Shown here piece by piece: positions 3,627 to 60,621 of a DNA stretch of 64,000 nt. The translations under genes were made by a program, and so were the position numbers. Source of the DNA: an uncultured Enterobacteriaceae bacterium. GTDB lineage: Bacteria > Desulfobacterota > Binatia > Bin18. The stretch covers positions 3,491 to 67,490 of the forward strand of contig CAZBUD010000016.1 of the NCBI GenBank assembly GCA_964495015.1. The letters run 5' to 3'. The notes under the pieces were generated by a model. The model did no database searches. It was not told the origin of the DNA and worked only from the letters and a program-made list of their open reading frames with translations. Position 1 is the stretch's first letter, and each line of letters begins with the position of its first letter.

Positions 3627-4565
3627 TTACGAGATGAGGTGTGCGGCGGTCTCGTCGCGATGTTTCTTGAGATAGGGCATGAACGGTGTCCCGCCCGTAC
3701 CGCGATCGGTCGGGTTGTCAGCGCGACACTGGTTCTGTTGATGGATATAGCGCCCCGCGTACTCCAGGTGGGTGGAACGGAAGAGTTCAATCTGGTGTAC
3801 ACAGGCGTCTCACGCGCTGCGCAGCCCAGAAGACCGTTGACACGGCGCCAGAACATACTCACGAATACAAGGGCCTTGTTCGATCGTCGCAATATAAACA
3901 CGGTGATGGAGGGGCATTTGGGCGCGCATCTCTCGCGGGTAGGGACGCAGCCGATCGTCTCGGTGCCCGATGCTGAGTGCAGCATCAAGACAAGGAATAA
4001 GAGAACGCTGGGCTCCGGTTTCACCTCGAAACTGGTGCGGGTGGGCTTTATAGGGCGTTACGCCTTGATACGCAACGCCGCGCGGGAGAGCAGGCTGGTC
4101 CTTCCGGCCGTGGATATAAGGTCGTACCCGGTCGTAATAGATAGACGGGTTGCACTGTTCAGGCATACGGAGCACGGTTGTGTACATATCTTGCACAACC
4201 GTAGCGATGAGGCCGAATTGATGTTCGAGTTCGTCCGGGCGGTTCTCACTCACAGCTCTTTGCGCTGAACCGATTGCTCTGAGCACCGAAGCAGCTTTCG
4301 CTTCGATATCGACGTGGATGAGAATAAACCATTCTTCGTCCAAGCTGGCCAAGAAATTGTGTAGCAGAACGATGTTGCCTAACGCGATTGGCCCGTTGGG
4401 CTCCAGCCGGCGGCAGTTGTAGAGTGCATACGAGGCGTAGGACAGAACCGGTGGACGATCGAGCTGGTGTGCTACGGCCCTAAACGAAACTTGACCTGTG
4501 CGGTAACAAAGCAGTATGAGGAGATGACTAGGGGGAGGTTTCCACGGCGCCGTTAGCAGCGCCAA
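3627..4565 (-). pseudogene. Indoleamine 2,3-dioxygenase (IDO)-family heme dioxygenase homolog with an in-frame TGA (3810-3812) and a short N-terminus
   Basis: The reverse frame encodes PPVLSYASYALYNC ... FILIHVDIEAKAASVLRAIG ... YYDRVRPYIHGRKDQPALPRGVAYQGVTPY ... FRGETGAQRSLIPCLDAAL ... MRAQMPLHHRVYIATIEQGPCIREYVL. These align with the IDO blocks [76 protein letters not shown] and [27 protein letters not shown]. After ...GLRSA comes an in-frame TGA. The same frame then continues as DACVHQIELFRSTHLEYAGRYI (IDO: [22 protein letters not shown]) to a TAA at 3627-3629. The start is a TTG at 4565, directly preceded by a TAA. Confidence 0.6.
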
Positions 4566-4620
4566 ATGGTGGAGAGCTTACACATTAAGCTCATCAAGCA
4601 AGCCAGGAAGGAGGCAGACT

Positions 4621-5805
4621 ATGCAATTTTTCAACTTCCATCTCATGCCCTGGCCACACGTACCAGAGGATTTTGGCGATGCTGAAAAATATCCCTCAGC
4701 TTGGGTCACGTTCTCCAATGAGCACTATGATCCCGAAAAAGGGCAGGATCTGTATAATCGCTATCTGGATGAGCTGGAGTATGCAGAAACGTTAGGTTTC
4801 GATGGCGTATGCGTGAACGAGCATCATCAAAATACGTATGGCACCATGCCGTCGCCCAATATTATTGCCGCCTTGCTTGCGCGCAGAACCAGTCGGGTCA
4901 AGATCGCCATGGTCGGCAACGGGCTGCCGTTGCGCGAGCATCCGATACGGGTGGCAGAGGAGATTGCGATGCTCGACGTCGTCACTGGCGGGCGCATTAT
5001 CTCCGGTTTTGTGCGTGGTATTGGGTGCGAGTATTACTCTATGGGGGTCAATCCTACCCACTCTCTTGCGCGTTTTCGGGAGGCGCATGATTTGATTATT
5101 CGCGCTTGGACCGAGACCGGGCCGTTTAACTTTGACGGTGAACACTACCAGGTTCGCTATGTCAACCTGTGGCCACGTCCGTTTCAACAACCGCATCCTC
5201 CCATCTGGATCCCCGGTTTTGGCAGTAAAGATACAATGAGTTGGTGCGCTGATCCGGCTCGCAAGTACCCCTATTTAGCCGTGTACATGTCGGACGCACT
5301 CGTCAAAACGTATTTCGATCAATATCGTGCGGAGGCCGAGAAATGTGGATATACAGCTTCTCCGTACCAACTGGGTCATTTGCTCCCCATCTATGTGGCT
5401 GAAACCGATGAGCGTGCTCGTGAAGAAGCGGCAGACCACGTTCTGTGGCTTTATCACCGGGGGTTGCGGATTCCCTTAAACATGCTCTTCCCGCCGGGGT
5501 ATGTTACGCAGGAGTCCATGAAACATGTTTTGGGGATGGCTGATGATCTCGACTATGCCAAGATGTCTTTCGATGACCTGAATGATCGCGGCTATTGTGT
5601 CGTGGGCGGTGTGGAGACCGTTAAGCAACGGCTTGCCGCTTCTATCAAAGAATTAGGCTACGGCATTTTACTGTCCCTACTCCAGATTGGTGACATGCCG
5701 CACTACCGGACCGTCAAAAATATGGAGCTGTTCGCCACTGAGGTCATGCCGTATTTGAGAAAAGAGTTTCAGGGCATGCAGGAAAAGTGGGCTCAGGCCG
5801 CGTAG
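4621..5805 (+). CDS. LLM-class (luciferase-like) flavin-dependent oxidoreductase
   Basis: 394 aa. RBS AGGAAGGAGG upstream. TIM-barrel LLM hallmarks are present (LGFDGVCVNEHH, PIWIPGFG, C-terminal helical bundle). Confidence 0.8.
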   Translation: MQFFNFHLMPWPHVPEDFGDAEKYPSAWVTFSNEHYDPEKGQDLYNRYLDELEYAETLGFDGVCVNEHHQNTYGTMPSPNIIAALLARRTSRVKIAMVGNGLPLREHPIRVAEEIAMLDVVTGGRIISGFVRGIGCEYYSMGVNPTHSLARFREAHDLIIRAWTETGPFNFDGEHYQVRYVNLWPRPFQQPHPPIWIPGFGSKDTMSWCADPARKYPYLAVYMSDALVKTYFDQYRAEAEKCGYTASPYQLGHLLPIYVAETDERAREEAADHVLWLYHRGLRIPLNMLFPPGYVTQESMKHVLGMADDLDYAKMSFDDLNDRGYCVVGGVETVKQRLAASIKELGYGILLSLLQIGDMPHYRTVKNMELFATEVMPYLRKEFQGMQEKWAQAA

Positions 5806-5845
5806 GTGAGGATCGGAGCTCGCATGCTTCGGCCCTCCGGAGGCT

Positions 5846-6634: not shown

Positions 6635-6695
6635 AGATGTATTGTGGCAAGCGCGTTTGGCGCCTGCAATAGGACGATATAACGAAAGGATATCC

Positions 6696-8951: not shown

Positions 8952-8974
8952 GATCCAAAGAGAGAAGGATATCA

Positions 8975-9694: not shown

Positions 9695-10173
9695 ATGCGC
9701 GTCATTATGGGACTCGGAAATCCTGGCGGGCGCTACGAAAAGACCCGTCACAATGCAGGCTTTCGGATGATTGATAAACTCGCAATACGTTTGGGGGGGG
9801 GTCCAGCTTTCACAATACGAATGGTCTTCTCGGCTGGGACGGGGAACACGTTTGTCTTATACAGCCACAGACATATATGAATAGAAGCGGCGAAGCTGCT
9901 GCCTGCTTGTGCGAAATATACCAAGTGCAGCGAACAGATTTTGTTGTGGGATGTGACGATTTGAATCTCCCGCTGGGCCGTCTCCGCATTAAGCGGACGG
10001 GTGGTTCTGGGGGACATGATGGAATTGCGTCGATTATGGCGGTCCTGGCAGGCTCGGACTTTGCTCGGATAAAGATCGGAATTGGTCGCCGGCCAGCTAG
10101 GCTCGATCCAGCCGATTTTGTTCTCCAGCCCTTTACTCGGGACGAAGAAGCCTTTACTCTCCCGGCGGCGTAA
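9695..10173 (+). CDS. pth: Peptidyl-tRNA hydrolase, interrupted by a frameshift in a G9 homopolymer (9793-9801)
   Basis: ORF 9695-9880 gives [36 protein letters not shown], then loses Pth similarity. In the -1 frame the same DNA reads [33 protein letters not shown]..., running into ORF 9877-10173 ([29 protein letters not shown] ... IGIGRRP). Together they make a complete Pth. The junction is the run ttGGGGGGGGGtcc. Confidence 0.75.
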
Positions 10174-10355
10174 CATGCCGTTACTGCGGTTGAGGCCGTT
10201 CTTGCTGAGGGGTTTGATCATGCCATGGCGTTATTTAAGGGCGCCGATAGCGCGAGGCCTGCAAGTCCTGTGCAGGGGGTAGTTTGAAAACCTGGCCTCA
10301 TCCTTTCGGCGTTGTACACTGTACGCGATAAAAGAGAGGCCAATCGGAGGAGTTC

Positions 10356-22944: not shown

Positions 22945-24159
22945 ATGATCGACCTCTCCCCTCCCTCGCATGTTGAGAAGACAGTTCGTGACATTCACCG
23001 ATTCATAGAAAACGATCTCTCACCCATTGAGCAGGATCTTTCTCAACACCTTATCAATGAACACCTCTATCTGCGCCAAGACGGACGCCTTGCGCCCGAG
23101 GTGTTGGCCGCCCAGCAGACGATTCGGAAACGGTCGGCGGAGAAGGGTTTGTATGCTCTCCACATGCCCAAAGAAGTCGGCGGTGGCGGTCTGAGCCTGA
23201 CTGATATGTTCTTTGTCCACGAGGCTGTCTACCAGCATGGCATAGGGGTAACGCAATGGATGCTGTCGTGGACGGAGGGACCAAACCAGATGCTGATGGT
23301 TCTCAACGAGGAGCAGAAGCAAAAATACCTCCTGCCGATGATGCGGGGTGAAACGACCGGCGCTTACGCCATCACTGAGTATCGAGGCGGTTCTGACGTG
23401 CTCGGTATGCAGACCCAAGCGGAAAAGCGTGGCGATGCTTGGGTGATTAACGGCACGAAGGCTTATATCACAAATGCCCAGTATGCAGACTTGGTTTTCG
23501 TGTGCGCCATGCACGATCCGAGCAAAGGCGGTGCAGGAGCAACCGCCTTTATTGTGGAGCGAGACAATCCCGGGCTCGAGATCGGGCGAACCTACCGAAC
23601 CATTATGGATGACGGAATGACTGGCGAGTTACGGTTTGAGAATTGCCACGTACCACAGGAAAACATGTGGGGGCAGGAGGGTGAAGGCTTTTACCTCAGC
23701 ATGGGCATGATCAACTGGATTCGCGTGCGCCGCGGGGGCATGTGCACCGGCCTGGGGCAATATTTGCTGGATCGGTGTATCGATTATATTAAAAACCGGC
23801 GTGCGTTTGGTGGCGCACTCAGCCGTTTTCAAGCCCTGCAGTGGATGGTTGTGGATTCTTACCTGGATGTCCAAGCCATGCGCAGTATGTCGCTTCAAAG
23901 TCTCTGGCAGGCCGACCAGGGAAACCTGTGGGCGTTCAAGGTCGATCCTCAACTCATCAAGGCCGTGTGTGCGCTCAAGGTCTTTTGCGATGAAGCGCTG
24001 TATCGCGTAGCCGACCGAGCGGTGCAGCTCCACGGTGCCCATGGACTCATGAAGGAATCCGGAATTGAAAAAATATTTCGGATTGCCCGCAATCTGCGTA
24101 TCCCTGGGGGAACGGATGAGATCCAGCGGGTGAATATTGCCAAGGCTCTCGGATTGTAA
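22945..24159 (+). CDS. Acyl-CoA dehydrogenase family protein
   Basis: 404 aa. YAITEYRGGSDVLGMQTQAEKRGDAWVINGTKAYITNA, plus a C-terminal four-helix region with the catalytic-base region (ARNLRIPGGTDEIQR). Confidence 0.8.
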   Translation: MIDLSPPSHVEKTVRDIHRFIENDLSPIEQDLSQHLINEHLYLRQDGRLAPEVLAAQQTIRKRSAEKGLYALHMPKEVGGGGLSLTDMFFVHEAVYQHGIGVTQWMLSWTEGPNQMLMVLNEEQKQKYLLPMMRGETTGAYAITEYRGGSDVLGMQTQAEKRGDAWVINGTKAYITNAQYADLVFVCAMHDPSKGGAGATAFIVERDNPGLEIGRTYRTIMDDGMTGELRFENCHVPQENMWGQEGEGFYLSMGMINWIRVRRGGMCTGLGQYLLDRCIDYIKNRRAFGGALSRFQALQWMVVDSYLDVQAMRSMSLQSLWQADQGNLWAFKVDPQLIKAVCALKVFCDEALYRVADRAVQLHGAHGLMKESGIEKIFRIARNLRIPGGTDEIQRVNIAKALGL

Positions 24160-24195
24160 CGTGTCCACGCTCTTCCCTCTGCCTCTTGCTGTCCC

Positions 24196-25524
24196 TTGAC
24201 CAACCTTTTCCCCCCCGGATACTGCAAGGCAGTGAGGGCTATCGAATCTGTCAATACTGAGTCTCGTACCGAGACCGCTAATCAGCAGAAATTCTTTTAT
24301 GGCTGGGTGGTAGTTGCCTGTTCGTTTATCGTCCTGACGGCTGCATATGGTGTTCAGTTTTCCTTTGGCGTGTTCATGCCGGAGATATCGGCTGAAATGG
24401 GCTGGGGACGGACGGAACTCTCTTTAGCCTATGCGTTCTACGTTTTCGTCTATAGCGGCCTTGGAATTGTAAGCGGCTGGTGTACCGACCGTTGGGGGCC
24501 GCGCATTGTAATTTTGGTTGGCGGTCTCCTGCTGGGGAGTGGTACTATGCTGATGAGCCAAGTGCACGCGCTCAGCCAACTATACGTATTCCTTGGTTGT
24601 ATCGCTGCTCTTGGCATGAGCGCTGCCTTTGTGCCGTGCAACTCTACAGTGGTGCGCTGGTTTATTGAGCAGCGTGGTCTTGCGCTCAGTATCAGTACGA
24701 GTGGGTCAAGTTTTGGAAACTTTCTTGTTCCACCACTCACAGCAGCTCTGATTACGGCCTATGGCTGGCGGGTGACGTATCTGATGATTGGGCTCATTAG
24801 CATGGCCATCATCGTATTGTGTTCACTATTTATTATCCGCGATCCTGAGACGGCTGGACTACAACCGGACGGGACTGTGCCGGTTGAACCAGTTCCGCGA
24901 TCAGAATCCCAGGCTCAGGTGAGTACGGCTGACGAATGGACGCTGGCAACAGCTCGGCAGACCTCGGCCTTCTGGATGCTGGTCGTGATCTTTACCATGA
25001 CGTGGTTAGTCGTCTTCATGCCGGTGATCCATATTGTTCCATTCGCGATGGACCTCGGTGTTCCGCAAGTCCGCGCGTCCACGCTCATTAGTGTTATCGG
25101 TCTGGCTGGATTTGGCGGACGACTCTTAATGGGACCGATTTCCGACCGCCTGGGTCGTATTCCAGCATTAAAAGTATGCCTGCTGCTGCAAACCCTGGCC
25201 TTTCTCGGGTTTTCGTTTAGCACCAGCCTGTCTCTGCTCTATCCGGCCGTAGCCGTCTTTGGTGTCTCTTACGGCGGGACGACTGCGCTCTTCCCGGCCA
25301 TCGTTGGGGACTTTTTCGGACGCGTCGCAGTTGGGTCCATTGTCGGGTTTATTTTTGCCGTGGCTGGCTCAACTGCCGCTTTCGGGCCGGCTGTTGCTGG
25401 GTATCTATACGACGTCTACGGAAACTATGAGATAGCGTTTTTATTAAGTTCGGGGTTGAATTTTCTTGGAGTCATGTTGTTATTTTTCATGAAAAGGCCA
25501 AAACGGTTGCCACATGCAACGTAG
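24196..25524 (+). CDS. MFS transporter (OFA-like; paralog of the 2267-3568 gene)
   Basis: 442 aa, about 12 TM segments. GWCTDRWGPR motif. Central hydrophilic loop. Confidence 0.8.
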   Translation: MTNLFPPGYCKAVRAIESVNTESRTETANQQKFFYGWVVVACSFIVLTAAYGVQFSFGVFMPEISAEMGWGRTELSLAYAFYVFVYSGLGIVSGWCTDRWGPRIVILVGGLLLGSGTMLMSQVHALSQLYVFLGCIAALGMSAAFVPCNSTVVRWFIEQRGLALSISTSGSSFGNFLVPPLTAALITAYGWRVTYLMIGLISMAIIVLCSLFIIRDPETAGLQPDGTVPVEPVPRSESQAQVSTADEWTLATARQTSAFWMLVVIFTMTWLVVFMPVIHIVPFAMDLGVPQVRASTLISVIGLAGFGGRLLMGPISDRLGRIPALKVCLLLQTLAFLGFSFSTSLSLLYPAVAVFGVSYGGTTALFPAIVGDFFGRVAVGSIVGFIFAVAGSTAAFGPAVAGYLYDVYGNYEIAFLLSSGLNFLGVMLLFFMKRPKRLPHAT

Positions 25525-25533
25525 GAGGGGAGT

Positions 25534-26337
25534 ATGCAGCGTGCATCGGTAAATGGAGTTGAATTAGTGTATGAAACCTACGGAGCGGGTGAACCGCTTG
25601 TTCTTGTCCACGGTGCGCAAAGTGATCGGAGTATCTTTATCAATCTACTCCCGGATTTTACGGATCAATTTGAGGTCCTGATCTTTGATCAACGCGGCTC
25701 AGGTCAAAGCGAAAAACCCGACGTGGAATACACTATGGGCATGATTGCCGATGACACTGCCGCGCTGATGGACTACGTGGGCTTCCCTCCTGCGCATGTG
25801 TATGGGGTCTCAATGGGGGGGATGATCGCCCAAGAGCTGGCCATTCGCCATGCCTCGCACGTCCAATCCCTCGTCCTTGGCTGCACGACTCCTGGAGGGC
25901 CTCAAGCAGTCAGCCTGCAAGGCGAGGCCATACAGAGTTCGCACTCAACTGAGGAACTCTCTGCAGAAGAACGTGGTAAGGCATTGGCTGAAACCGCTTT
26001 TACCGAGGGCTATATTCAAAAGCACCCAGAGATTATCTCGACATTGGTCGAAGCTCGCAAAAAGCAGCCGCTTGACACTGTTGGTTTTTCTCACCGAATG
26101 CAAGCAGCTTACATGCATAATACCTTTGACCGTTTGTCACAGATTACTTGTCCGACACTTGTGATTACGGGTAAAGACGATGCGCTGATTGCGTGGGAGA
26201 ACTCAAAACTCCTGGCAAAAAATATTGCCAATTCCGAACTTGTGGTCTTAGAGCCGGCCGGCCATGTTTTTTGGGTGGAACAGCCAACACGGTCGAGAAA
26301 TGCGATTTTGACATTTCTACAGAAACACAAGAGGTAA
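25534..26337 (+). CDS. Alpha/beta-fold hydrolase
   Basis: HG oxyanion motif (LVLVHGAQSD). Nucleophile elbow GVSMGG. C-terminal GHVFWVEQP histidine. Confidence 0.8.
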   Translation: MQRASVNGVELVYETYGAGEPLVLVHGAQSDRSIFINLLPDFTDQFEVLIFDQRGSGQSEKPDVEYTMGMIADDTAALMDYVGFPPAHVYGVSMGGMIAQELAIRHASHVQSLVLGCTTPGGPQAVSLQGEAIQSSHSTEELSAEERGKALAETAFTEGYIQKHPEIISTLVEARKKQPLDTVGFSHRMQAAYMHNTFDRLSQITCPTLVITGKDDALIAWENSKLLAKNIANSELVVLEPAGHVFWVEQPTRSRNAILTFLQKHKR

Positions 26338-26346
26338 GGGTCAACT

Positions 26347-27378
26347 ATGCAAAACAAAGAAATCACCAAAAATAGTCAAGTACGTATGATGCGGAGTTGG
26401 ATGCTCGGCCTGCATGCCACGCATATTACCGATATTGGTGGGCGGCTCGGCTATTTCACTGAGATGCGTCGGCGCGGTGGAACAGCCTCGGCTGAAGGGC
26501 TTGCCCAAGCTCTGGAACTCGATCCCTGGCGGACAAGGGTCTGGTGCCAGGCGGCGTGTGCGGTCGGGGTGCTGCAATCTGACGGTGATACGCAGTTCAC
26601 CTTTGCTCCGTTTATGGACGAACTCCTGGGCGATAATTCGCCTGAACTCCTCACGACCCATGTCCTGGCAAGCCTGTCACGAGACTTTCCCGCCTATCCG
26701 GAGGCCTTTCGGACCGGCGCGCTGAAAACCTTTCATGACCATGACGAAGATTTCTTCCACCATCAAGGCAAAATATCAGCTTTGCGCGCGCCTGTCGTAG
26801 TTGCTGCAGCCCGCAAACTGTCCGGTATGGAAGACCGATTGAGTACCGGGGGTAAAGTCATGGACATCGGTTCCGGCAGCGGAACAGTCCTCGTCCGCTT
26901 TGCCGAAGAGTTTCCGACCTGCCAAGTCACCGGCATCGAGCCGTTGCCATATTTTGTGGAGACCTCTCAAAAACTGATTCAAGACAAAAGGCTGGGCAGC
27001 AGGGTGCGGGTTGAGTCGGTCGGCGGGGAAGAACTGCCTTTTGAGAACGAGTTTGATCTTGTTACTATGGTTCAGGTCTTCCACGAGCTGCCGGATGAAA
27101 AGAAAATAGATATCTTGATTCGGTGCCACCGTAGTCTCAAGCCGGACGGAGTATTGCTCGTTGTTGATCGGTGTGCGCCTGAGACTGGGGAAGATTTGCA
27201 TGACCGACGCTTCACCATGAGTATTCTGGAGCAGTGGTTTGAAGTGACCTGGGGTAATATCGTTAACACTCGAGGTGATATTATTCAAATGTTAAAAGAC
27301 ACGGGGTTGAGCGTGACTGATGAGAACTCGGATATCATCCCGACGTATTGGACGTTTGTGGCGGAGAAGACTGCTTAA
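26347..27378 (+). CDS. Class I SAM-dependent (O-)methyltransferase with an N-terminal winged-helix/dimerisation domain
   Basis: Motif I VMDIGSGSGTV and an acidic motif II (TGIE), then LVTMVQVFHELPD and LKPDGVLLVVD. Starts 9 nt after the hydrolase stop. Confidence 0.75.
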   Translation: MQNKEITKNSQVRMMRSWMLGLHATHITDIGGRLGYFTEMRRRGGTASAEGLAQALELDPWRTRVWCQAACAVGVLQSDGDTQFTFAPFMDELLGDNSPELLTTHVLASLSRDFPAYPEAFRTGALKTFHDHDEDFFHHQGKISALRAPVVVAAARKLSGMEDRLSTGGKVMDIGSGSGTVLVRFAEEFPTCQVTGIEPLPYFVETSQKLIQDKRLGSRVRVESVGGEELPFENEFDLVTMVQVFHELPDEKKIDILIRCHRSLKPDGVLLVVDRCAPETGEDLHDRRFTMSILEQWFEVTWGNIVNTRGDIIQMLKDTGLSVTDENSDIIPTYWTFVAEKTA

Positions 27379-27402
27379 GAGGAGTCGGAACGGAGTAGCA
27401 AT

Positions 27403-28392
27403 ATGGGTCGATTAGGGCTCGTCCTTTACCATGGCATTGAAAGTGGTCCAGAACTCAAACAGTACGGACAGATTGCAGAAGACGCGGGTTATGAGTCGCT
27501 GTGGGTGACGGAGCGCTATTTCCACGAAGAGATTTTTTCCCTGCTTGGCTATCTTGGTGCTGCTACAGAAAAGATCAAACTCGGTGTTGGCGTCACTAAC
27601 CCCTACACGCGGAATCCCGCGCTCTTAGCCATGGCAACGGCAACACTAGATCGGATCACGGGCGGACGCTTTTTGCTGGGGCTTGGACGAAGCGAACGCA
27701 GTGTTATCCAAGACAAGATGGGCATGCCCTACGGCAATTCCCAGGCAGCGATGAACGCTGCGGTCTCGCTCGTCAAACGTCTTTTATCTGGTGAACGGGT
27801 AACCGACACCGAAGGGCCTTTTACACTGCGCAAGGCATGCCTTGCTACAAAGCCGATTCAACAAAACCTGCCCATCTATCTTGCCGCAATTGGAGAAAAA
27901 GGGCTGCGTCTGGCTGGAGCGATTGCCGATGGCATCTTGCTCAATGCCTACGTTCCGCCGTCCTACGTCAAATACGCAGTTGAAGAGATTCGCAGCGCAG
28001 CCCAAGAGGCTGGGCGTAATCCACAGTCTATCGATATTGCCTGCATGCTCGTCATTCGATTGACCGATGACCCGCACAGCATGATGCCAACCCTCAAAAA
28101 GCGTATTGTCCGGCTGCTCGACGAAGCCTTTGTGGGAGAGATTCTGCTGAAAAAAGGCGGCTTTGATCCGTCCATTCTTGGGCCCTTACGGGAGTCTTAT
28201 GCAAAGGATGAAGGTAAAGAGGCCGTAGGACTCATCACGGATGAAATGGTCGAGTCTTTTTACCTCGTCGGCTCAGCAGAGAAATGCAAAGAAGGTATAG
28301 CCGAATATCGACAGGCGGGTGTGGACCTCCCGCTGCTCCTACCTCGCCTTGAGGATTATAAGCGTGTCGCGGAAGAGCTGAAAGATGCGTAA
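27403..28392 (+). CDS. LLM-class F420/flavin-dependent oxidoreductase (Mer/luciferase-like)
   Basis: 329 aa. ESLWVTERYFHEE, RFLLGLGRSE and the C-terminal GLITDEMVESFYLVGSAEKCKEGIAEYRQAGVDLPLLLP are typical of the family. Confidence 0.8.
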   Translation: MGRLGLVLYHGIESGPELKQYGQIAEDAGYESLWVTERYFHEEIFSLLGYLGAATEKIKLGVGVTNPYTRNPALLAMATATLDRITGGRFLLGLGRSERSVIQDKMGMPYGNSQAAMNAAVSLVKRLLSGERVTDTEGPFTLRKACLATKPIQQNLPIYLAAIGEKGLRLAGAIADGILLNAYVPPSYVKYAVEEIRSAAQEAGRNPQSIDIACMLVIRLTDDPHSMMPTLKKRIVRLLDEAFVGEILLKKGGFDPSILGPLRESYAKDEGKEAVGLITDEMVESFYLVGSAEKCKEGIAEYRQAGVDLPLLLPRLEDYKRVAEELKDA

Positions 28393-28788
28393 CGTTTCAG
28401 CCTAGAACGCAAAGGCCTTCTTATTGGGCAGCCTCGTTCAGACGGGTAACGCGGTAATAAATCAAAACCGGCCCCACGGTCTTCGATAATAGCAGTTGAG
28501 ACAAGCGGGCCTTTTATCCGAATGGGGTTAAAGGCGCAAAAGGGGACTTTGCTTTCCGGCTGAGTATGCCAAGGGCAACAAATTCATCAAGGTGAGCCTC
28601 TTCTCCGTTAGTTTTTCGCTGCTCCTGCTGCATTTGTGGTCATTATGACTATACGAAAAGCTGTTGTCAAAGCTATTATTATTTTCAAGCGAATATTCCC
28701 CTACCCGAGTAGCCGCATGTTTAGCTGTTCTATATAAACAGTCCCCTATGGCGAATATTCATTCATCTCATACGAGGAAGGAGCTCCC

Positions 28789-29823
28789 ATGAAACTTGCA
28801 ATCGGTGTTGGCTATTCCGGCGGGCGGGTTGAACTGCCCATGGATATGATCCTTGAGGCGGAAAAGCTAGGTTATGACTCGGTCTGGAGCGCGGAGGCGT
28901 ATGGCTCGGATGCTGTGACGCCGTTGGCCTACTTAGCCGCGAAAACCTCACGGATCAAACTTGGCACCGGCATTATGCAAATCCCGGCTCGTACGCCGGC
29001 CATGTGTGCTATGACCATGTCGACTCTGGATGCGCTCTCGAATGGCCGCGTGCTGGTAGGTCTTGGTATGTCCGGTCCGCAGGTGATCGAGGGCTGGCAC
29101 GGCATGTCGTACAGCAAAGCCGCCGCGCGTATTCGTGAATATGTGGAGATCATGCACAAGATTTGGGACCGTCAAGAGCCAGTTGCGTTTGATGGCAAGG
29201 TGTATCAACTGCCCTACCAAGGCGAAGATGCGAGTGGACTCGGTAAACCGCTCAAGTCGATCCTGCACTCACGGCGTCTACCGGTCTATCTGGCGACCAT
29301 GAAGCCGCTCAGTATCCGTATTACGGCCGAACTCGCCGACGGCTGGTTGCCGATTTGGTTTTCACCCTACCGTATGAGTATGTTTGCCCATGATTTGGAA
29401 AAGGGCTTTCAGCGTGCAGCAAATGGTAAGTCTTTGGACAATTTCGACGTGGTAGCTGGATGTACGGTTGTCATCGGAGACGATGTGAGGTTCTGCCTCG
29501 CCCAACTCAAGCCGACCTTGGCTCTCTACGTCGGCGGCATGGGTGCCAGAGGCAAGAATTTCCACAATGAAATGGTCTCGAAGTACGGCTACGCTGATGT
29601 GGCGGCTGAGATACAGGATCTCTATCTGTCGGGCCGTAAGAAAGAGGCCACTGCGCTGGTCCCGGATGAGCTGTGTGACGAAATCTCCTTGTGTGGCCCA
29701 CCAGCTCGGATTCGCGAACGCTTCAAAGCTTGGGAATACGCCGGCGTTTCAACCATGATGGTCCAGTCGAGGCAGCCTGAGGCGCTGGCCTTAATGGCGG
29801 ATGTAGCGGGAACGAATCAGTAG
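28789..29823 (+). CDS. LLM-class F420/flavin-dependent oxidoreductase
   Basis: 344 aa. RBS GGAAGGAG upstream. DSVWSAEAYGSD, RVLVGLGMSGPQ, and a C-terminal ALVPDELCDEISLCGPPARIRERF. Confidence 0.8.
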   Translation: MKLAIGVGYSGGRVELPMDMILEAEKLGYDSVWSAEAYGSDAVTPLAYLAAKTSRIKLGTGIMQIPARTPAMCAMTMSTLDALSNGRVLVGLGMSGPQVIEGWHGMSYSKAAARIREYVEIMHKIWDRQEPVAFDGKVYQLPYQGEDASGLGKPLKSILHSRRLPVYLATMKPLSIRITAELADGWLPIWFSPYRMSMFAHDLEKGFQRAANGKSLDNFDVVAGCTVVIGDDVRFCLAQLKPTLALYVGGMGARGKNFHNEMVSKYGYADVAAEIQDLYLSGRKKEATALVPDELCDEISLCGPPARIRERFKAWEYAGVSTMMVQSRQPEALALMADVAGTNQ

Positions 29824-29854
29824 GCCAAGGAAGAGGGGATTTTTAGGAGAGAAA

Positions 29855-30742: not shown

Positions 30743-30779
30743 TCCGTTTAACCCATCTAGGTGCAATACGGAGGAATCC

Positions 30780-31568: not shown

Positions 31569-31654
31569 ATTGTAAGGGCGAATCATTCACCTCCGTCGGG
31601 AGGAAAGAGCGTTCGACGCAAAGACCAGAATGCCTCGCCCCTGGAGATCACGCT

Positions 31655-32644: not shown

Positions 32645-32696
32645 TCATATCGTCGGGTAAGAGAAAAATCTGGAAAAATCTGAAGGAGAAGCAGGC

Positions 32697-33842: not shown

Positions 33843-33878
33843 GGGAATTCTCTATACAAACTGAAAAGGAGCAAGGAC

Positions 33879-34535: not shown

Positions 34536-34653
34536 CGACCACTAGTAGTAACAGCCTCTTCGTAAGGGGACGGTCTGCCGTGCCCTTACCTTTTTGTGGA
34601 AGGAATCCCGCTAGGAAACATGTCATGTTTCTCGCCGCCCGTCCGCACGATGA

Positions 34654-35250
34654 AATGGTCGCATGGGAAAAAAGTACGGATCCGCAGGTTTTGAATCGTT
34701 GTGGTAAGCGGAGATGACCATCTCGGCGCGCATGCAGCTGGCTGCGATTGTTCCCAGAGTCGGTACTATCCAGATCGGTCCATACGCCGCCCTGACGGGT
34801 GAGCTCGGGAACGGCCTGATTGGTAACCCTATTTTCTCTCCCCAGCATGTGCGGGACCATATCTTATCTGCGCTGAAAATAGGACTCGACAAACGTGGGC
34901 GCAGTCGATCTGATCCTGAAGTCTTGGGCCAGCGTTTTGCTATCATTGATGACGATCTGACAGCTGCCTACCGTATTGGCGCAGACGCCATGATGTTTAG
35001 CATCTGGGCGCGCATTTATTATGATGATATCTTTGCCGCCGATGGATTTTCATAGACAGTTGAACAGGTCCGCTCCATGTAGCGCATTCCAGACACAGAC
35101 AAGGCCGTTGAGCTGATTTCCTATGAGATGGTTGATGCCTTTTGTGCAGTCGGGCGGATTGATCGGGTCCGGGCCAAAATCAATGAACGCGAAGGACTGC
35201 TTGATACCAGCATTCTCGCTGTCCCGAATACAGGCACGACGCAAGAGTAG
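34654..35250 (+). pseudogene. Decayed LLM-family oxidoreductase gene (C-terminal two-thirds only, with in-frame TGA, TAA and two TAG codons)
   Basis: A single + frame reads NGRMGKKYGSAGFESLW*AEMTISARMQLAAIVPRVGTIQIGPYAALTGELGNGLIGNPIFSPQHVRDHILSALKIGLDKRGRSRSDPEV ... AADGFS*TVEQVRSM*RIPDTDKAVELISYEMVDAFCAVGRIDRVRAKINEREGLLDTSILAVP. This is colinear with the intact LLM at 27403 (LPIYLAAIGEKGLRLAGAIADGILLNAYVPPSYVKYAVEEIRSAAQEAGRNPQS ... GLITDEMVESFYLVGSAEKCKEGIAEYRQAGVDLPLLLP). No N-terminal half is present. Confidence 0.45.
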
Positions 35251-35411
35251 CGCGATTATTGTCGGGATAAAACTTTGGATGCGTTTACGGACTAGAAAAG
35301 GCTGCACCCGTTCTGAATTCCCCTCTTGGCCGGGGAGCCGCCTTGTGTCAGTGACACGTAGCGCCAGGGTGGGTCCTATCTCTAGATTCACAAGGCAAGG
35401 AGCGCCGACAC

Positions 35412-36167
35412 ATGAGTAGGAATGAGAAGGTCGCTATCGTAACAGGCGCAGGCACTGGAATTGGTAAATGCAGTGCGCTCGCCCTCTTGCAAGAGGGCTA
35501 TGCCGTGGCTTTAGCTGGCCGCCGTGTAGCGCTATTAGAAGCAACGGCGAAAGCGGCTGGGACAGATGCAAAGACTCTTGTCGTCCCGACTGATGTAAGC
35601 GATCCTGACTCTATTCGTGCCTTGTTTGCCAAAACGAAAGAGACCTTTGGCCGACTCGACGTATTGTTCAACAATGCCGGCATTGGCGCACCGCCTGTGC
35701 CTCTGGAAGATCTATTATATGATCAATGGAAAGCCGTTGTGGACATCAACCTGACCGGTGCTTTTGTGTGTACGCAAGAAGCATTCAAGATCATGAAAAA
35801 CCAAGATCCACGTGGCGGTCGTATCATCAACAACGGTTCCATCTCGGCCCACGTCCCGCGTCCCAACTCCGCGCCGTATACGGCAACGAAGCACGCCATG
35901 ACTGGCCTGACCAAGTCGACGTCACTTGATGGGCGTCAATACGATATTGCCTGTGGCCAAATTGACATCGGAAACGCCGGGACAGAAATGACAGCAGTCA
36001 TGAAAAAAGGTGTCCCTCAGCCTCATGGGTCCGTTGAGGTAGAGCCGACATTTGACGTGAATCATGTAGCGCAAGCCGTTGTGTATATGGCAAACTTGCC
36101 GCTTGATGCGAATGTACAATTCATAACGATCATGGCGACCAAGATGCCGTTTATTGGGCGAGGGTAA
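35412..36167 (+). CDS. SDR-family short-chain dehydrogenase/reductase
   Basis: TGAGTGIG cofactor motif, NNAG, and the catalytic YTATKHA (YxxxK). Confidence 0.85.
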
Positions 36168-45523: not shown

Positions 45524-46663
45524 ATGGAAAGCCCATCAGTGAACCGCGATAGCCAGACACAATCGACCTACTGGATCGCACTCCACCTGGTACATGGTGT
45601 TGGAAATGTTACGTATCGTCAATTGCTGAAGAATTTTACCTCACCGCAGGCGGCCTTGAATCCTTCCACCGCTGCGCTGATAGAAACTTGTGTCCGCTCA
45701 CGTGTTGCGCAAAATATTACTGCATTTGATCAATGAGCGGACTTTGAAGCTGAAGTCCACAGGCTGGAACAGGTTGGGGCACATTTGGCCACACGAACAG
45801 ACGACGAATATCCGGTGAGGCTACGGCAGATCCATGACCCAGCCCCTCTTCTCTATGTGCAGGGGAGATTTGTTCCGGAAGATAGGGTATCAATTGCCAT
45901 TGTGGGCGCCCGGATGGCCGGTGCATATGGACGTGGTGTGGCACGCGAGCTGGCCCAGGAACTTGTTGCCCGGAGGATTAGCGTCGTGAGCGGGATGGCG
46001 CGTGGTATTGATGCCGAGGCCCACCATGCGACTCTCGAGGCCGGCGGCCGGACCATTGCTGTTTTAGGATCGGGGCTTGACGTAGTGTATCCGCGTGAGC
46101 ACATAGCGTTGGCAGAGCATATTGCTGCGAATGGAGTAGTCGTGTCGGAGTTTGCACTTGGCAGTCGACCCGAGGCCGGGAACTTTCTCTATAGGAATCG
46201 GGTCATTAGTGGCATGAGTCTCGGCACAGTTGTTGTGGAGGGAACGGAAAAGAGTGGGTCTCTGATCACGGCCCAGTGTGGGCTGGACCAGAACCGTGAG
46301 ATGTCTGCCGTCCTTGGTCCGATTACAGTAAGCCGCAGCCGTGGTCCACATCGGGTCATTAAGGATGGCGCAAAATTTGTTGAAAACATTGATGATACAC
46401 CGAGCGAAATTGTACTCGGCCCCGTGCCGGTTGGCCAGCCTGCGAAGGTCACGCCGGCCGTCCTTTTGGATCCGGACGAAGAGCTACTGTTTCGGCTGTT
46501 TGAAGAAGAGCCGCTACACGTTGATACGGTAATTACCGGAAGTCGGCTTGAGACAGCACGCGTACTTGAGGTGTCCCTTAGGCTAGAATTAAAAGGATTA
46601 GTTGCCCAACTCCCAGGAATGGATTTCGCGTCTACGAGAGGAAGCGAAGCAAGAGGAATGTAA
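45524..46663 (+). CDS. dprA: DNA-processing protein DprA (Smf), one reading frame interrupted by an in-frame TGA at 45734-45736
   Basis: ORF 45524-45736 (YWIALHLVHGVGNVTYRQLLKNFTSPQAAL, the DprA N-terminal SAM/HhH domain) and ORF 45785-46663 (DEYPVRLRQIHDPAPLLYVQG ... Rossmann-like DprA core ... C-terminal winged helix) are in the same frame. The intervening read ...AFDQ*ADFEAEVHRLEQVGAHLATRT aligns to E. coli Smf ...SLCWLEQPNHHL. Conserved dprA-topA adjacency, 2 nt apart. Confidence 0.75.
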
Positions 46664-53330: not shown

Positions 53331-55142
53331 CTACGGAAGCCCCGTTTCGCTCCTCTTTTGTACCTCGGTCGGTCTCAAGGCCAAGGCATTAAGCTTCGTC
53401 CGCAAACGCTGAATCTGAGATTCTTCCGACGTGTTTTGGATTGCTTCCTGGTAGATGCGGGATGCATCAGCGATCCGTCCGGTCTTGTGGTAGGCATCGC
53501 CCAGATGTTCGATCAATGTAGGGTCTTCATCGACCAGCTCAACGGCGCGTTCGAGGTGCTGAACTGCTTGCACATATTCTCCGCGTTGGTAATAGACCCA
53601 CCCCAGGCTGTCAATGTAAAAGCCATCGTTTGGTTCAATTGCGAGCGCGCTTCGGATGAGGCTCTCAGCCTCATCAAGACGCACACCTTGTTCGGCCCAC
53701 GTATACCCGAGGTAGTTGAGTGCGGCTGCATTCTTGGGGTTGAGTGCAATCGCCTTTTGCATGTGCCGGATGCAACGGTCCTTCTCTTTCAGTTCATCGT
53801 AGACCGCTCCCAATGTGAAGTGGTACTGATCATTGTTTGGGGCAAGGCTAACAACTTTCTCAAGGATACTGATTGCTTTCGTACGATTATCATTTTCTAG
53901 GTGAAGTGAGGCGAGGAAACCCAACAAGTCCAGATCATCCTCTTTGACGCTCAGCAAGCGTTCCACCTCCGTAATCGCCAGGTCGAGCTTCTCCTGGCGT
54001 TGATAAATATAACTGAGGTAGACGCGGGAATCAGCAAAATATTCCGAGTCAGATGGAATACGCAATAACTCGACGGCCGCTTTCTCATCGTCTTTGGCTT
54101 CCGTATAAATGACGCCAAGAAAGTATCTGGCCCTGTGGTTATTTGCCTGGGAGGCCAAGATGAGGTTGAGCTGAGTAACCGCCTTTTCATTGTTCCCTTT
54201 TTCCCGGTAGATCAGGCTTATTTTGAGTCGGGTTTCTTGGGGGTCTGCCTCAATCTTCTCAAGCACAAGAAACTGATGCAGCGCGTCATCGAGCTTCTTC
54301 TGACCTAGGTAGAAGCGTCCGAGACGATTACGCACCTGTTCACTGTGGGGATTGACGGCGAGCGCTTTTTGATAGATCTCCGCGGCCTGAGCGGTCTTCT
54401 TCTGCATTTCGTACACTAACGCAAGGTCAAGCAGCACCAATTCAGACTGCGGATTGAGACTCAGTGCCTTCTGGTAATACGTTTCTGCCTGATCCAGTTG
54501 TCTGGCTGCTGCTGAAGTCTGACCGAGGTAGTAATAGCCCAAGACAGAATGCGGGTAGCGTTCAACAAGCTTTTTCAGAACCGCTGTGGCTTTTTGGAAT
54601 TCCTCCTGCTTGGCATATAAGGTACCGAGATAGAGGTAGGGCTCTTGGTTGTCAGGACTGCGTTTGAGCAGAGCCTCGTAGACCTGAGCGGCCTTTGTTT
54701 CTTTGCCGCTCGATGAGAGGAGCCCGGCAAGTAGGAGCTGGGCGTCGACGTTTTCGGGTTCACTGGCAACGACTTTTTTGCAGTGCTCTAGGGCTTCGGC
54801 CAGCTTGCCTTGACGCACGGCCAGGGTGGCGAGTCGGAGACGTAAAAACGGACTTTCCGGGTCGTTTTTTACCGCCTGTTCAAGTTCAGTCAGAGCCGTT
54901 TCGTAAACACCGTCATTGAGCGCGACCTGGCTCTTGAGAAAATGTCCCAGGGCTTTGTCTTCAGGTGACAGTACGACTGGAGTGCCCGGAATTTGCGCGG
55001 CTTGTGCTGGAGATGGCGCGACAACTGCAGGTGGTGATAGCGACAATGAAGGAGGCCGGGCTGGACGAGTGGCGGTACACGCGCCAAGAGCAGCAACAAG
55101 ACCGACTGAGACTGCCCTACCGACAGGGTTATTGGCATGCAT
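53331..55142 (-). CDS. TPR-repeat lipoprotein
   Basis: 603 aa. Lipobox LGAC, a Pro/Ala-rich linker, then more than 12 tandem TPR-like 34-residue repeats (recurring A..Y.KAL..NP motifs). Confidence 0.8.
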   Translation of the reverse strand: MHANNPVGRAVSVGLVAALGACTATRPARPPSLSLSPPAVVAPSPAQAAQIPGTPVVLSPEDKALGHFLKSQVALNDGVYETALTELEQAVKNDPESPFLRLRLATLAVRQGKLAEALEHCKKVVASEPENVDAQLLLAGLLSSSGKETKAAQVYEALLKRSPDNQEPYLYLGTLYAKQEEFQKATAVLKKLVERYPHSVLGYYYLGQTSAAARQLDQAETYYQKALSLNPQSELVLLDLALVYEMQKKTAQAAEIYQKALAVNPHSEQVRNRLGRFYLGQKKLDDALHQFLVLEKIEADPQETRLKISLIYREKGNNEKAVTQLNLILASQANNHRARYFLGVIYTEAKDDEKAAVELLRIPSDSEYFADSRVYLSYIYQRQEKLDLAITEVERLLSVKEDDLDLLGFLASLHLENDNRTKAISILEKVVSLAPNNDQYHFTLGAVYDELKEKDRCIRHMQKAIALNPKNAAALNYLGYTWAEQGVRLDEAESLIRSALAIEPNDGFYIDSLGWVYYQRGEYVQAVQHLERAVELVDEDPTLIEHLGDAYHKTGRIADASRIYQEAIQNTSEESQIQRLRTKLNALALRPTEVQKRSETGLP

Positions 55143-55412
55143 GCGCCGAGCGTATCACGTGGTGAAATTGACGGTCAATCCTGGGATGGGTAAGAAGCGC
55201 GGGAAAGGAATATTTTTATGGTTCCAGCTGAGCCAGCTATACTGGCCATACCCACTACATCTCGAGACGTCTCAGTTTTTATATAGAAAGTTGACTGTGA
55301 CCACACTACCGTGTTTGGCCCCTGAGCCTTCCCTATTGCATGCCCCGGGTGAGCGACTATATGCTGGCCCTCTGTTAAGAAGCGGGTCGACGGTGTGTTG
55401 TGCCGAACACGT

Positions 55413-56352
55413 GATGCCTAACGAATTTTACGATCTGAAACGCCTATTCACCCTGCACCAAACGATAGCGCACTGTGACGGCGCAGCACCTCCCACGGCA
55501 CATCTGTTCTCTCTACCGATCCGTTCGACATCACACCGGATCGGAGTGCTGTGCGGCTCGTTTAATCCGTTGACCCTGGCTCATACCGAACTGGCCGATC
55601 AGGCCTGTCGGATTTTTCAGCTTGATCAGCTCCTATTTACGTTGGCAAAGGTCACGGTGGATAAGGAGCAGGTGACCGGCCTGGGGCTGGAGGATCGATT
55701 GCTGTTGCTCCTCCTCTACGCAGCGCAGCATCCAAAAACAGGAGTAGCGCTGGTCAACCGTGGGCTGTATGTCGAGCAAGCTCAGGCTTTTCGTGCGGCT
55801 TTTGGCGAGGATATTTCCCTGTCTTTTATTGTTGGCATGGATAAGCTCATCCAGATTCTGGATGCGCGTTATTACCAAGATAGAGAAGTGGCCCTTGCTC
55901 AGCTTTTTTCTCGTACATCTCTTGTAGTAGCGAATCGAGGGGAAATGGGGCGACGTGCTTTCGATGACCTGCTGAATCAGCCTGCCAACCGCGCCTATCA
56001 GGCAGACGTACACTTCTTAGCGCTTCCGGAGTCGGTGGGGAATCTTTCCTCAACCGCCGTACGAGATGCGCGAGATGCCCAGGTGCCGCCTGAGGTGGCA
56101 GCGTTTCTGGCTGACACCCACGCATATGCAGTCCCTCAGCAGGACGACGAAGAGAGGGAAGCCCGGATCGATGCCTATGCCGTCCGCCTTGCTCTGTTGG
56201 ATCGGCTCATCGAGGTACAAGGCTGGGCGGAACAAGAAGTCGATTTTCGACAGCTCATTGGACAAACGGGTGCGCCTGATGCGAAAGGCCGGGCGCTCCG
56301 CCGGGCAGCGACTGGCGAGGAGTTGCGTACCCTCTTACGGAAGCCGGCCTAG
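55413..56352 (+). CDS. NadD-like nucleotidyltransferase (nicotinate/nicotinamide-nucleotide adenylyltransferase family) with a C-terminal extension
   Basis: RIGVLCGSFNPLTLAHTELADQA is the (H/T)xGH nucleotidyltransferase motif. SFIVGMDKLIQI and a downstream block follow. The start is uncertain: the uninterrupted ORF runs back to 54916, but its first 166 codons overlap the TPR gene on the other strand. Confidence 0.5.
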
Positions 56353-56417
56353 CGCCTCTTTCCCCCGGGTGGTAGCTTTCCGACGCGTTCCGTCAACTTG
56401 AGTAGGTAGGAGGAAAG

Positions 56418-58823: not shown

Positions 58824-58824
58824 C

Positions 58825-58861
58825 GGGGAGGTGACCTCGCCCGGGCAGGGTAACCCTCCCC
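58825..58861. terminator. Inverted repeat (GGGGAGG ... CCTCCCC enclosing CCCGGG) between convergent genes
   Basis: 7-bp GC-rich outer stem with a 23-nt interior that contains a palindrome. No U-tract. Confidence 0.35.
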
Positions 58862-58878
58862 TATATCGATTCGCGGCC

Positions 58879-59766
58879 TTACAGCGCGTGCGTTTTCGAA
58901 GGCGTTGGAAGTGGAGGCTGAGCCGGCGGTTCAGCGTCTAGGCGAACATCTTTTTCTACAGTTTTTTCATCTGGAACTTCGGCCCGCTCAAGGACGAACG
59001 GTTTGCCTCGTCCTGTCGGGTTTGTGACAAAGACATCATACGAACCCGTGTCAAGCGAAAAACGATGCTCTTGCCCAGGCTCACTCCGGGCGATCTCTTT
59101 TTGTGTTCCTGCTGCATAGATAATGACATGGGTGACCGGGCTCACGTCACGTCCGTCAAGGAGCGGGTGAACCCAGAGTTGGCCGCGCATGCGTTCGCGC
59201 AAAGTCAGCTCTTGCAAGCCTCCCCGGTGGAGTTCAATATCACGCCACCACCGACTCTGTGGTGGCGTCGCGACTTTGACATCAACCACTCCGGGCTGAG
59301 CCATAATGCGTTCTCCACTCAGGAATTCTCCAAGCAGGTCTTTTGAAACGCCATCATAGATTTCAACGCCGAGACCCAGATCCTGGCCTTTTTTGTCCAG
59401 GACGTTCACCTGCAGTTCAGCTACCTCGCTGATAATAACACTGCTTGTTCGACCTGCTTTGACGAGGACGCGCTCCCGCGAGATCGTTCCACCCAGGACA
59501 TCGAGTTCGACCCGATATGTTCCTGGTGAAAGTGATAGCAGTCTGCCCAAAGGAGCCATGCTGACAAGGGTTTGGGGATCTGTGGCATAGATCCTGGCCT
59601 GTGCATCCCCCTGGTTTCCCTCTTCGGTAGAGGTCCGAACGATGAGCGAGCCTGTTGCCTCTGGCTCCGCTTGAGGCTGAACAGCGTAGCTAGCATGCGG
59701 CAAGAGTGGCGAGAATGGGAAGAAGAGAAGACTAACCAGACAGATCAATATGCAATACTGTCTCAT
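58879..59766 (-). CDS. Hypothetical secreted protein
   Basis: 295 aa. N-terminal signal peptide MRQYCILICLVSLLFFPF ... ASYA. Beta-rich, and Pro-rich at the C-terminus. Confidence 0.5.
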   Translation of the reverse strand: MRQYCILICLVSLLFFPFSPLLPHASYAVQPQAEPEATGSLIVRTSTEEGNQGDAQARIYATDPQTLVSMAPLGRLLSLSPGTYRVELDVLGGTISRERVLVKAGRTSSVIISEVAELQVNVLDKKGQDLGLGVEIYDGVSKDLLGEFLSGERIMAQPGVVDVKVATPPQSRWWRDIELHRGGLQELTLRERMRGQLWVHPLLDGRDVSPVTHVIIYAAGTQKEIARSEPGQEHRFSLDTGSYDVFVTNPTGRGKPFVLERAEVPDEKTVEKDVRLDAEPPAQPPLPTPSKTHAL

Positions 59767-59798
59767 CGTTGGCAGATTCCTATAAAAAAGCCAGCCGG

Positions 59799-60621
59799 CT
59801 TATTTCTCAATCGGCAAATCTTCTCGATTGCCCCATTCCGCCCATGAAGCATCATAATTCCGGACCTTGTCAAAACCGAGAAGCCGCAGGGTAAAGAGTC
59901 CGTGCGCCGCACGGATGCCGCCCTGTCAATACGTAATGACTTCACATTCAGGCCTGACCCCGGCCTGCTCAAACAGGGAGCGCAATTCTACCGCCGGCTT
60001 AAATTGTCTCGTTTTGGGATCAACATAATTGAGCCATTCGAGATGGACGGCGCCGAAAACCCGCCCGCCACGTTTGGTGCCCCGATCGTTTTCACCCGTC
60101 CATTCCGCGTCCGAACGTGTGTCGAGGACTACCGTATCGGTGTCGATTGCATCCTGGACCTGTTCCCAACGAGCAATGAAGTCTTCACGCACCTGAGGGG
60201 TAAAAACTGCTTTTGCCGGACGAGTGGCCGCAGTTGTCACGGGCCGACCTTCGGCCAACCAGGTATCCCATCCACCGTTCAGCACTTTAGCGTTTGCATG
60301 ACCATAATAGCTGAGTGCCCACCAAAATCGCGTAGCGTACAGGCCGCTAAAGCCGTCATAGGCAACCACCAGGCTGTCAGCGCCGATCCCAAGCGCACCC
60401 ATGGCCTGGGCAAACTCGTCCGGGCCCATAACATGCAGCGCCCCTTCTTTTTCTTTCAAGTAATGATGGCCACGGAAGGTAGTCGCGCCAGGAATATGGG
60501 CGCGTCGGTACGCCTCACGGTTGTCACAATCGACTATTCGAATATTATCGTCCTGGAGATGGGTTGCCAGCCATTGGCTATCGGCCAACATCTCCGGTCG
60601 AGCATAGCCTTGGTCCGCCAT
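59799..60621 (-). CDS. Two-domain rhodanese (thiosulfate/3-mercaptopyruvate sulfurtransferase) with an in-frame TGA at the catalytic-cysteine position; candidate selenoprotein
   Basis: ATG at 60621 preceded by AGGAGG. The N-terminal inactive rhodanese domain is followed by ...[55 protein letters not shown], all in one frame. This aligns to the rhodanese active-site loop (V/I)xxYC(Q/R)xG(I/V)R(A/S) and the downstream YDGSWxEW motif. A shadow ORF (59763-59972) occupies a different frame. Confidence 0.75.
59887..59925 (-). other. Two-stem hairpin immediately 3' of the rhodanese UGA (candidate bacterial SECIS-like element)
   Basis: mRNA: UGA-CAGGG-CGGCA-UCCGUGC-GGC-GCACGGA-CUCUUUA-CCCUG. Lower stem CAGGG/CCCUG, asymmetric internal loop, 7-bp upper stem, G-rich apical loop about 20 nt after the UGA. 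Confidence 0.35.

Follow-up and report, generated by a model that had tools for sequence, protein, structure and literature searches.

Metagenome data from the Sargasso Sea first led to the prediction that the 'rhodanese-related sulfurtransferase' of the COG2897 group is a selenoprotein (Zhang, Fomenko & Gladyshev 2005, PMC1088965), and a 2026 review includes it under the motif UxxG (PMC13188914). The element that we examine here is a gene of this kind on the minus strand of a 64,000-nt stretch of contig CAZBUD010000016.1, from an uncultured bacterium whose closest named relatives are 'Candidatus Binatia' metagenome-assembled genomes. This whole stretch is called the window, and all positions below refer to it. 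Like the Sargasso Sea proteins (COG2897/SseA-like, PF00581), the predicted product has two rhodanese domains, selenocysteine (Sec, U) in place of the catalytic cysteine, the UxxG motif, a marine origin and homologs that use Cys. Judged by these features, the gene is a member of the known UxxG rhodanese-related sulfurtransferase selenoprotein family and shows no difference in kind from it. What our work adds to this family is that the Sec form is the rule in Binatia/Dehalococcoidia-type relatives (77 of the 80 species representatives retrieved), and that the core of the predicted selenocysteine insertion sequence (SECIS) is invariant at the nucleotide level.

The rhodanese codon is one of three in-frame UGAs in the window. 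A first-pass annotation, made from the letters alone, had pointed to in-frame TGA codons at 3810, 45734 and 59926 and had looked for a common cause behind them. All three codons are where it placed them (3810-3812, minus strand; 45734-45736, plus strand; 59926-59928, minus strand), and Pfam assigns their host genes to IDO, to DprA (DNA_processg_A plus winged-helix) and to a two-domain rhodanese, respectively. The common cause, in contrast, gives way to three independent ones: very probably, the UGA is a Sec codon in the rhodanese gene, a nonsense codon in dprA and another nonsense codon in an IDO pseudogene. Since the same 64 kb also hold a pseudogene of pth and one of a 169-aa hypothetical gene, the three codons would occur together because a modest number of real pseudogenes and a single selenoprotein lie in one stretch, and not because of recoding.

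A conserved UGA at the catalytic position of the rhodanese gene

The rhodanese gene spans 59800-60621 on the minus strand, from an ATG at 60619-60621 to a TAA at 59800-59802, and comprises 273 codons including the predicted Sec codon. Pfam finds the Rhodanese domain in two stretches of its translation (E = 1.6e-28), the tandem arrangement of the PF00581/COG2897 type, and the protein aligns end to end with the rhodanese of Thermus thermophilus (1UAR, E = 4e-42) and with SseA of Mycobacterium tuberculosis (3HZU, E = 3e-36). These alignments run through the active-site loop, which reads C-R-x-G-x-R in the two solved proteins and U-Q-G-G-I-R in the window, and they place the UGA (59926-59928, minus strand) on the active-site Cys that 1UAR and 3HZU use. 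The residues around the codon, U-Q-G-G-I-R-A-A-H, thus contain the UxxG motif as U-Q-G-G.

The orthologs place the codon in the same way. Dozens of them, with 64-100% identity, end exactly at ...ITY (231-233 aa), the full-length ones read on past ITY, and some protein homologs continue as ITYCQGG, with Cys at the Sec site. We compared the DNA of 80 species representatives (loci L005-L084), most of them from Binatia and Dehalococcoidia/Chloroflexota; the codon at the site is TGA in 77, TGC in three, and TAA or TAG in none. Beyond the TGA, the frame stays open for 40-47 codons in all Sec-type loci, and the substitutions that separate the window from an 88%-identical relative downstream of the codon are almost all synonymous, which argues that this segment is translated. 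The first-pass annotation had named Sec as one possibility for the rhodanese, and this part of its proposal has held up well: the UGA at the Cys site, the existence of Sec and Cys orthologs, the conserved downstream frame and the constrained hairpin described below together give strong support to the UGA at 59926-59928 as a conserved Sec codon.

This assignment has a practical side. Annotators should call the gene as a single 273-residue selenoprotein and not as a 231-aa fragment, and gene callers have produced the truncated rhodanese (about 231 aa), with its active site hidden, in dozens of public protein clusters from Binatia and Dehalococcoidia.

A constrained hairpin downstream of the rhodanese UGA

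The SECIS of Escherichia coli fdhF is a hairpin within the coding sequence, immediately 3' of the UGA, that serves SelB-dependent Sec insertion. The window has a putative bacterial SECIS in the corresponding place. Inside the rhodanese coding sequence, at 59899-59915 on the minus strand, lies a predicted core hairpin, (U)CCGUGC-GGC-GCACGG(A), with an invariant 6-bp stem (59900-59914) that begins 11 nt past the UGA and that an optional U-A pair extends to 59899-59915. With the fdhF element it shares its position inside the gene, a stem that starts about 11 nt downstream of the UGA, and a G-rich apical loop. In contrast to that element, the stem is short (6-7 bp), the GGC loop has three nucleotides (five with the closing pair open) and there is no evident bulged U.

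The hairpin was recognized by synonymous constraint and by its consensus fold. Codons +4 to +8 (ATC CGT GCG GCG CAC) show a synonymous entropy of 0-0.1 bit across 79 distinct Sec-type sequences, against 0.69 bit for codon +9 (GGA) and about 1.3-1.8 bits for the four-fold sites on either side. In the three Cys-type orthologs, these codons do vary. Moreover, the consensus fold keeps the six base pairs in 77-78 of 78 sequences. A lower stem, CAGGG...CCCUG, which is predicted when the window is folded alone, is absent from the consensus fold of the 78 sequences and was discarded. The near-universal Sec form and the invariant SECIS provide a simple diagnostic DNA pattern (TGA CAG GGN GGN ATC CGT GCG GCG CAC GG); the DNA motif TGACAGGGNGGNATCCGTGCGGCGCACGG is nearly diagnostic for the Sec-form rhodanese.

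We propose that the gene encodes a two-domain sulfurtransferase of the thiosulfate/3-mercaptopyruvate type, in which Sec would stand at the catalytic Cys position. If the element works as it does in E. coli fdhF, SelB with Sec-tRNA(Sec) would bind the hairpin and deliver Sec to the UGA, and translation would then run 41 further codons to the TAA stop. The selA, selB, selC and selD genes that such a process needs would be encoded elsewhere in the genome.

Decay of dprA and of the IDO-like gene

The second UGA interrupts dprA (45524-46663, plus strand), a gene of 379 codons with this one nonsense codon, in which Pfam recognizes DNA_processg_A, DprA_WH and, weakly, DprA_N. Its translation has the same three parts as DprA of Rhodopseudomonas palustris (3MAJ), namely an N-terminal HhH/SAM-like part, a Rossmann-like DNA_processg_A domain and a C-terminal winged helix, but the window gene is broken between the first two of them. 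The TGA, at codon 71 (45734-45736, plus strand), stands where all aligned full-length homologs have a Trp, in the context FDQW or FDRW. In the DNA of the two closest relatives (85% and 83% identity) the codon is TGG, so that one G-to-A substitution accounts for the change; the hairpin that follows the TGA in the window is not conserved in them. The same TGA is found in a short-read contig that differs from the window by 14 single-nucleotide polymorphisms (SNPs; contig L002).

The remainder of dprA has also drifted. Its translation differs from the conserved residue at 17 of 148 highly conserved columns, with replacements such as P222L, F261S and P264L, whereas none of 118 homologs deviates at more than five and 87 deviate at none. 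The ratio of non-synonymous to synonymous substitution rates (dN/dS) is 0.27-0.28 against the relatives, compared with 0.15 between those relatives and with 0.05-0.13 for the neighbouring argS, topA and gidA-like genes. Within the population, all three SNPs of dprA are non-synonymous, while topA has seven synonymous SNPs and one non-synonymous SNP. The gene thus retains neither the uninterrupted three-domain frame nor the full set of conserved residues of a functional DprA, and by these signs it is a pseudogene under relaxed selection and not one maintained by read-through. In the course of events that we envisage, TGG would have become TGA at the conserved Trp, and the gene would have drifted afterwards.

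The third UGA (3810-3812, minus strand) lies in a remnant of an IDO-family dioxygenase gene, at 3630-4490 on the minus strand, which retains codons 112-398 and the original TAA stop (3627-3629). With an 85%-identical intact homolog (P0241) as the tblastn query, only residues 112-398 are represented in the window. The syntenic locus of a relative (L094) has a full 398-aa IDO gene between the same MFS and luciferase-like monooxygenase (LLM) neighbours; a deletion has therefore removed the 5' third of the window gene, including its start. The TGA aligns with a nearly invariant Tyr (AYDAC or AYNAC), present in human IDO1 and in 11 of 11 aligned homologs. The relative has TAT at this site, and two substitutions were therefore needed to produce the stop. 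The same TGA occurs in four short-read contigs (L088-L091).

Other signs of decay accompany the lost start and the nonsense codon. Set beside bacterial IDO-family haem dioxygenases (PF01231; human IDO1, 6CXU, as reference), the C-terminal large domain still aligns, including the proximal-His region FRSTHLEY, but the N-terminal 111 residues are missing, a stop takes the place of the conserved Tyr, and conserved positions have been replaced. Of 91 conserved columns, 8 are altered in the remnant, with changes such as W129R and Y191Q (numbered as in the conserved-column comparison); the sequence with the next highest number of changes, from a close relative, looks decayed as well. Its dN/dS is 0.30, against 0.06-0.20 for its neighbours. 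A functional IDO would have a full length of about 390-400 aa with its own start, an uninterrupted frame and the conserved residues; the remnant falls short in each respect, and its sequence marks it as an older pseudogene. Here, a deletion would have taken the 5' 111 codons, and the Tyr codon would since have become TGA through two substitutions.

The first-pass annotation had described the frames around the UGAs as otherwise open and conserved, and had suggested, among other causes, recent nonsense mutations in non-essential genes. The frame of dprA is indeed open apart from its TGA; the description fails for the IDO-like gene, of which the 5' third is gone. Nonsense mutation is what we find in both genes; the recency does not extend to the IDO remnant, with its 5' deletion and two-step change from Tyr to stop.

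In one of the contigs that contain the IDO TGA (L089), four SNPs are clustered in a 16-nt segment inside the remnant (4137-4152), and two of them introduce additional stops (TAG and TGA). This cluster sits where another contig (L091) ends and may be real microdiversity or an artefact of the assembly graph; we gave it no weight.

UGA as a stop codon and the question of recoding

Wholesale reassignment of UGA is excluded, as the first-pass annotation had anticipated from a few ribosomal and tRNA synthetase genes. TGA ends at least ten conserved genes of the window (rpsF, priB/ssb-like, rpsR, rplI, pheT, pheS, topA, uvrD, a deoxyhypusine-synthase-like gene and an MFS gene), with 1-19 codons from each of these ten stops to the next in-frame stop. 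Where relatives are available, the product lengths are equal (433 aa in both for the MFS protein, 325 aa in both for the deoxyhypusine-synthase-like protein). There is thus no general read-through. The window resembles the UGA-reassigned codes (table 4, UGA = Trp; table 25, UGA = Gly) in that the UGA of dprA falls on a Trp position, but in those codes UGA is unused as a stop and many in-frame UGAs lie at conserved Trp or Gly codons, while here it ends genes at their expected C-termini and a single conserved Trp is affected in 64 kb. When the window was scanned for stops with long open frames on both sides, the output was noisy, with mostly adjacent operon genes or antisense frames among the hits, and no candidate emerged beyond the three TGAs.

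A narrower proposal is that UGA is partly recoded, the codons in dprA and the IDO-like gene being read by near-cognate tRNAs such as tRNA-Trp to give full-length, functional proteins. UGA is the leakiest stop and is misread by tRNA-Trp; moreover, the UGA of dprA lies exactly at a conserved Trp codon, in a frame that is open over all its other codons, and none of the sampled population contigs that span the site lacks it. However, both genes show relaxed constraint in their outlier substitutions and raised dN/dS: the 17 replaced columns of dprA are more than three times those of the next worst of 118 homologs, and its population SNPs are non-synonymous without exception. Read-through could not rescue an IDO-like gene that has lost its first 111 codons and its start, relatives do not share the hairpin that follows the UGA of dprA, and the genes that end in TGA have no conserved extension. 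We therefore consider partial recoding very unlikely, and with it the near-cognate read-through raised in the first-pass annotation. A weaker variant, likewise improbable, would have the UGA of dprA tolerated because read-through by tRNA-Trp supplies enough full-length DprA.

Recurrence of the lesions in other assemblies

It is fair to ask whether the lesions exist at all, as the first-pass annotation did when it suspected systematic errors of assembly. According to this explanation, the real genome would have sense codons in dprA and the IDO-like gene and an intact pth, and the presence of several broken genes within 64 kb, together with a pth lesion that lies in a run of nine G (a homopolymer, typical as an error site), would fit it. 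For comparison, we retrieved by exact-protein look-up short-read contigs from other marine metagenome assemblies (including PRJNA352798 runs SRR5007141 and SRR5007147, 'HARO18-2' and 'BERG17-1' scaffolds, and ERZ27300296), among them MEGAHIT k119/k127 contigs, Logan contigs and scaffolds of other biosamples. These match the window at 99.6-100% identity with zero gaps and span all three TGAs as well as the pth lesions. Several of them differ from the window by 4-14 SNPs, and such SNP-bearing contigs cover the IDO, dprA and rhodanese sites; they therefore sample the population separately and do not duplicate the window. For the pth lesions, the only covering contigs (L085 and L086) have the same sequence as the window. 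In addition, the 5' deletion of the IDO-like gene, a 14-nt deletion in pth and the many amino-acid replacements cannot be errors of base calling. Assembly error is rejected as the cause of the three TGAs, and as an account of all the lesions, pth included, it is highly improbable. With this, the suspected recoding or assembly problem is removed, and dprA, the IDO remnant and pth should be flagged as pseudogenes in the annotation.

Other readings of the UGA codons

Two further explanations concern Sec itself. In the first, the rhodanese UGA would be a nonsense mutation or a true stop, and the product a 231-aa protein without the active-site loop. This is how gene callers annotate the gene and its relatives (products of 231-233 aa), and no Sec machinery is seen in the window. 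However, a chance stop would hardly be the same TGA in 77 of 80 species and never TAA or TAG, nor would it be followed by 40-47 codons conserved as protein with mostly synonymous differences, by a nucleotide-invariant hairpin at the canonical distance, and be matched by Cys-containing orthologs. A true stop at this site is scarcely credible, and a Sec codon remains our reading of it.

The second, that all three UGAs encode Sec and that dprA and the IDO-like gene are new selenoproteins, has a negligible chance: each UGA does have a drawable hairpin within 12 nt, but the homologs have Trp (dprA) or Tyr (IDO) at the sites and never Cys, the nearest relatives have TGG and TAT, a stop at the site explains, among the best 120 hits per gene, only the window's own dprA fragment (P0123), a short IDO hit (P0243) lacking the N-terminus but having Tyr at the site, and the hairpins of both genes are not conserved while the genes themselves are decaying.

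Stable hairpins within 12 nt of two of the three TGAs had been among the arguments of the first-pass annotation. Although hairpins are drawable after all three, their stability is uninformative: the folding z-scores against shuffled sequences are -0.7 for the rhodanese, -0.7 for dprA and -2.5 for the IDO-like gene. Folding energies do not separate the three sites, and we discarded them as evidence in favour of comparative data, by which the rhodanese hairpin alone is conserved in relatives.

Several observations weigh against the reading of one selenoprotein beside two pseudogenes. The folding energy of the rhodanese hairpin is indistinguishable from that of shuffled sequence, and its stem shows no compensatory base changes, because it is invariant; the support for it therefore rests on suppressed synonymous change. 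The 64-kb window contains no selA, selB, selD or tRNA-Sec gene: NCBIfam and Pfam annotation of about 50 of its open reading frames (ORFs) gave no selA, selB or selD, and Rfam (at gathering thresholds) with ARAGORN found tRNA-Gln and tRNA-Val only, with no SECIS family and no tRNA-Sec. For dprA and the IDO-like gene, dN/dS is about 0.3 and not about 1, and some residual function may persist; a low-level product of Trp read-through, or a re-initiated and N-terminally truncated DprA, would be compatible with such a value. We would expect the same value if inactivation was recent relative to the divergence compared. Finally, the population SNP counts are small, and some of the 100%-identical contigs may share their source sample with the window, so that not every contig counts as independent.

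Other broken genes in the window

The first-pass annotation had also noted a frameshift in pth, and the damage proves to be both real and worse. The pth pseudogene (9695-10287, plus strand) is in its canonical prs-ctc-pth-rpsF position, but its N- and C-terminal parts lie in different frames, and it contains two indels and an in-frame TAA; once repaired, the conceptual protein covers positions 1-182 of the 183 of Pfam Pept_tRNA_hydro. Alignment with two intact relatives (L096 and L097) locates the lesions on the plus strand: four extra nucleotides, which produce a G9 run (9793-9801), the loss of 14 nt after 9838, and a CAA-to-TAA change at 10171-10173. These relatives came from a metagenome scan, a look-up with rpsR having returned same-strain contigs only. 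A TAA and two indels in the same stretch mean that the lesions are not specific to TGA, which was one of the tests that the first-pass annotation had set for a phenomenon peculiar to this codon. The two intact relatives, too, have GGH[G/T]G in place of the canonical GGHNG motif.

The pth gene is regarded as essential in bacteria, and the 64-kb window has no second copy of it. If the genome has no second peptidyl-tRNA hydrolase, it is tempting to speculate that this free-living marine lineage lives without pth or rescues it by slippage on the G9 run and that, with dprA, the IDO-like gene and the hypothetical gene also dead, gene loss is ongoing in a planktonic lineage with a large genome (the closest complete relative genome has 7.1 Mb); we consider this improbable. 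The cluster of pseudogenes, and pth in particular, is a minor lead on gene loss in this marine lineage, and what the dead pth signifies hinges on whether the rest of the genome contains another copy.

The remaining broken gene is a remnant of a 169-aa hypothetical gene with two frame changes (61681-62175, plus strand). With the intact 169-aa gene of a related 7.09-Mb genome (L001) as the query, tblastn returned three pieces in frames 1, 2 and 1, with 60-76% identity. The first-pass annotation had listed a decayed LLM gene instead; tblastn with four LLM paralogs at E <= 0.1 found no such remnant, and the four luciferase-like monooxygenase genes of the window are all full length. The broken gene near the rhodanese region is thus the 169-aa hypothetical and not an LLM gene.

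Other contents of the window

Between the rhodanese gene and the 169-aa remnant lies an enoyl-CoA hydratase gene (306 aa; 60699-61619, minus strand). Its place in L001 measures only about 180 nt, an insertion/deletion difference of about 0.9 kb, and the gene is present in a short-read contig (L003). On the other side of the rhodanese gene, an ORF of 295 aa (58879-59766, minus strand) is kept next to it in L001 (91% identity) and in the short-read contigs. Neither this ORF nor one of 478 aa (54916-56352, plus strand) has a Pfam match; the latter overlaps the 5' end of a TPR protein gene on the opposite strand by about 230 nt.

The stretch from 22945 to 36167 is densely occupied by acyl-CoA dehydrogenases, an enoyl-CoA hydratase, alpha/beta hydrolases and two luciferase-like monooxygenases, together with a GST, a nitroreductase, a short-chain dehydrogenase and a methyltransferase. 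All of these genes appear intact, and the whole looks like a catabolic gene neighbourhood of the lipid or hydrocarbon type.

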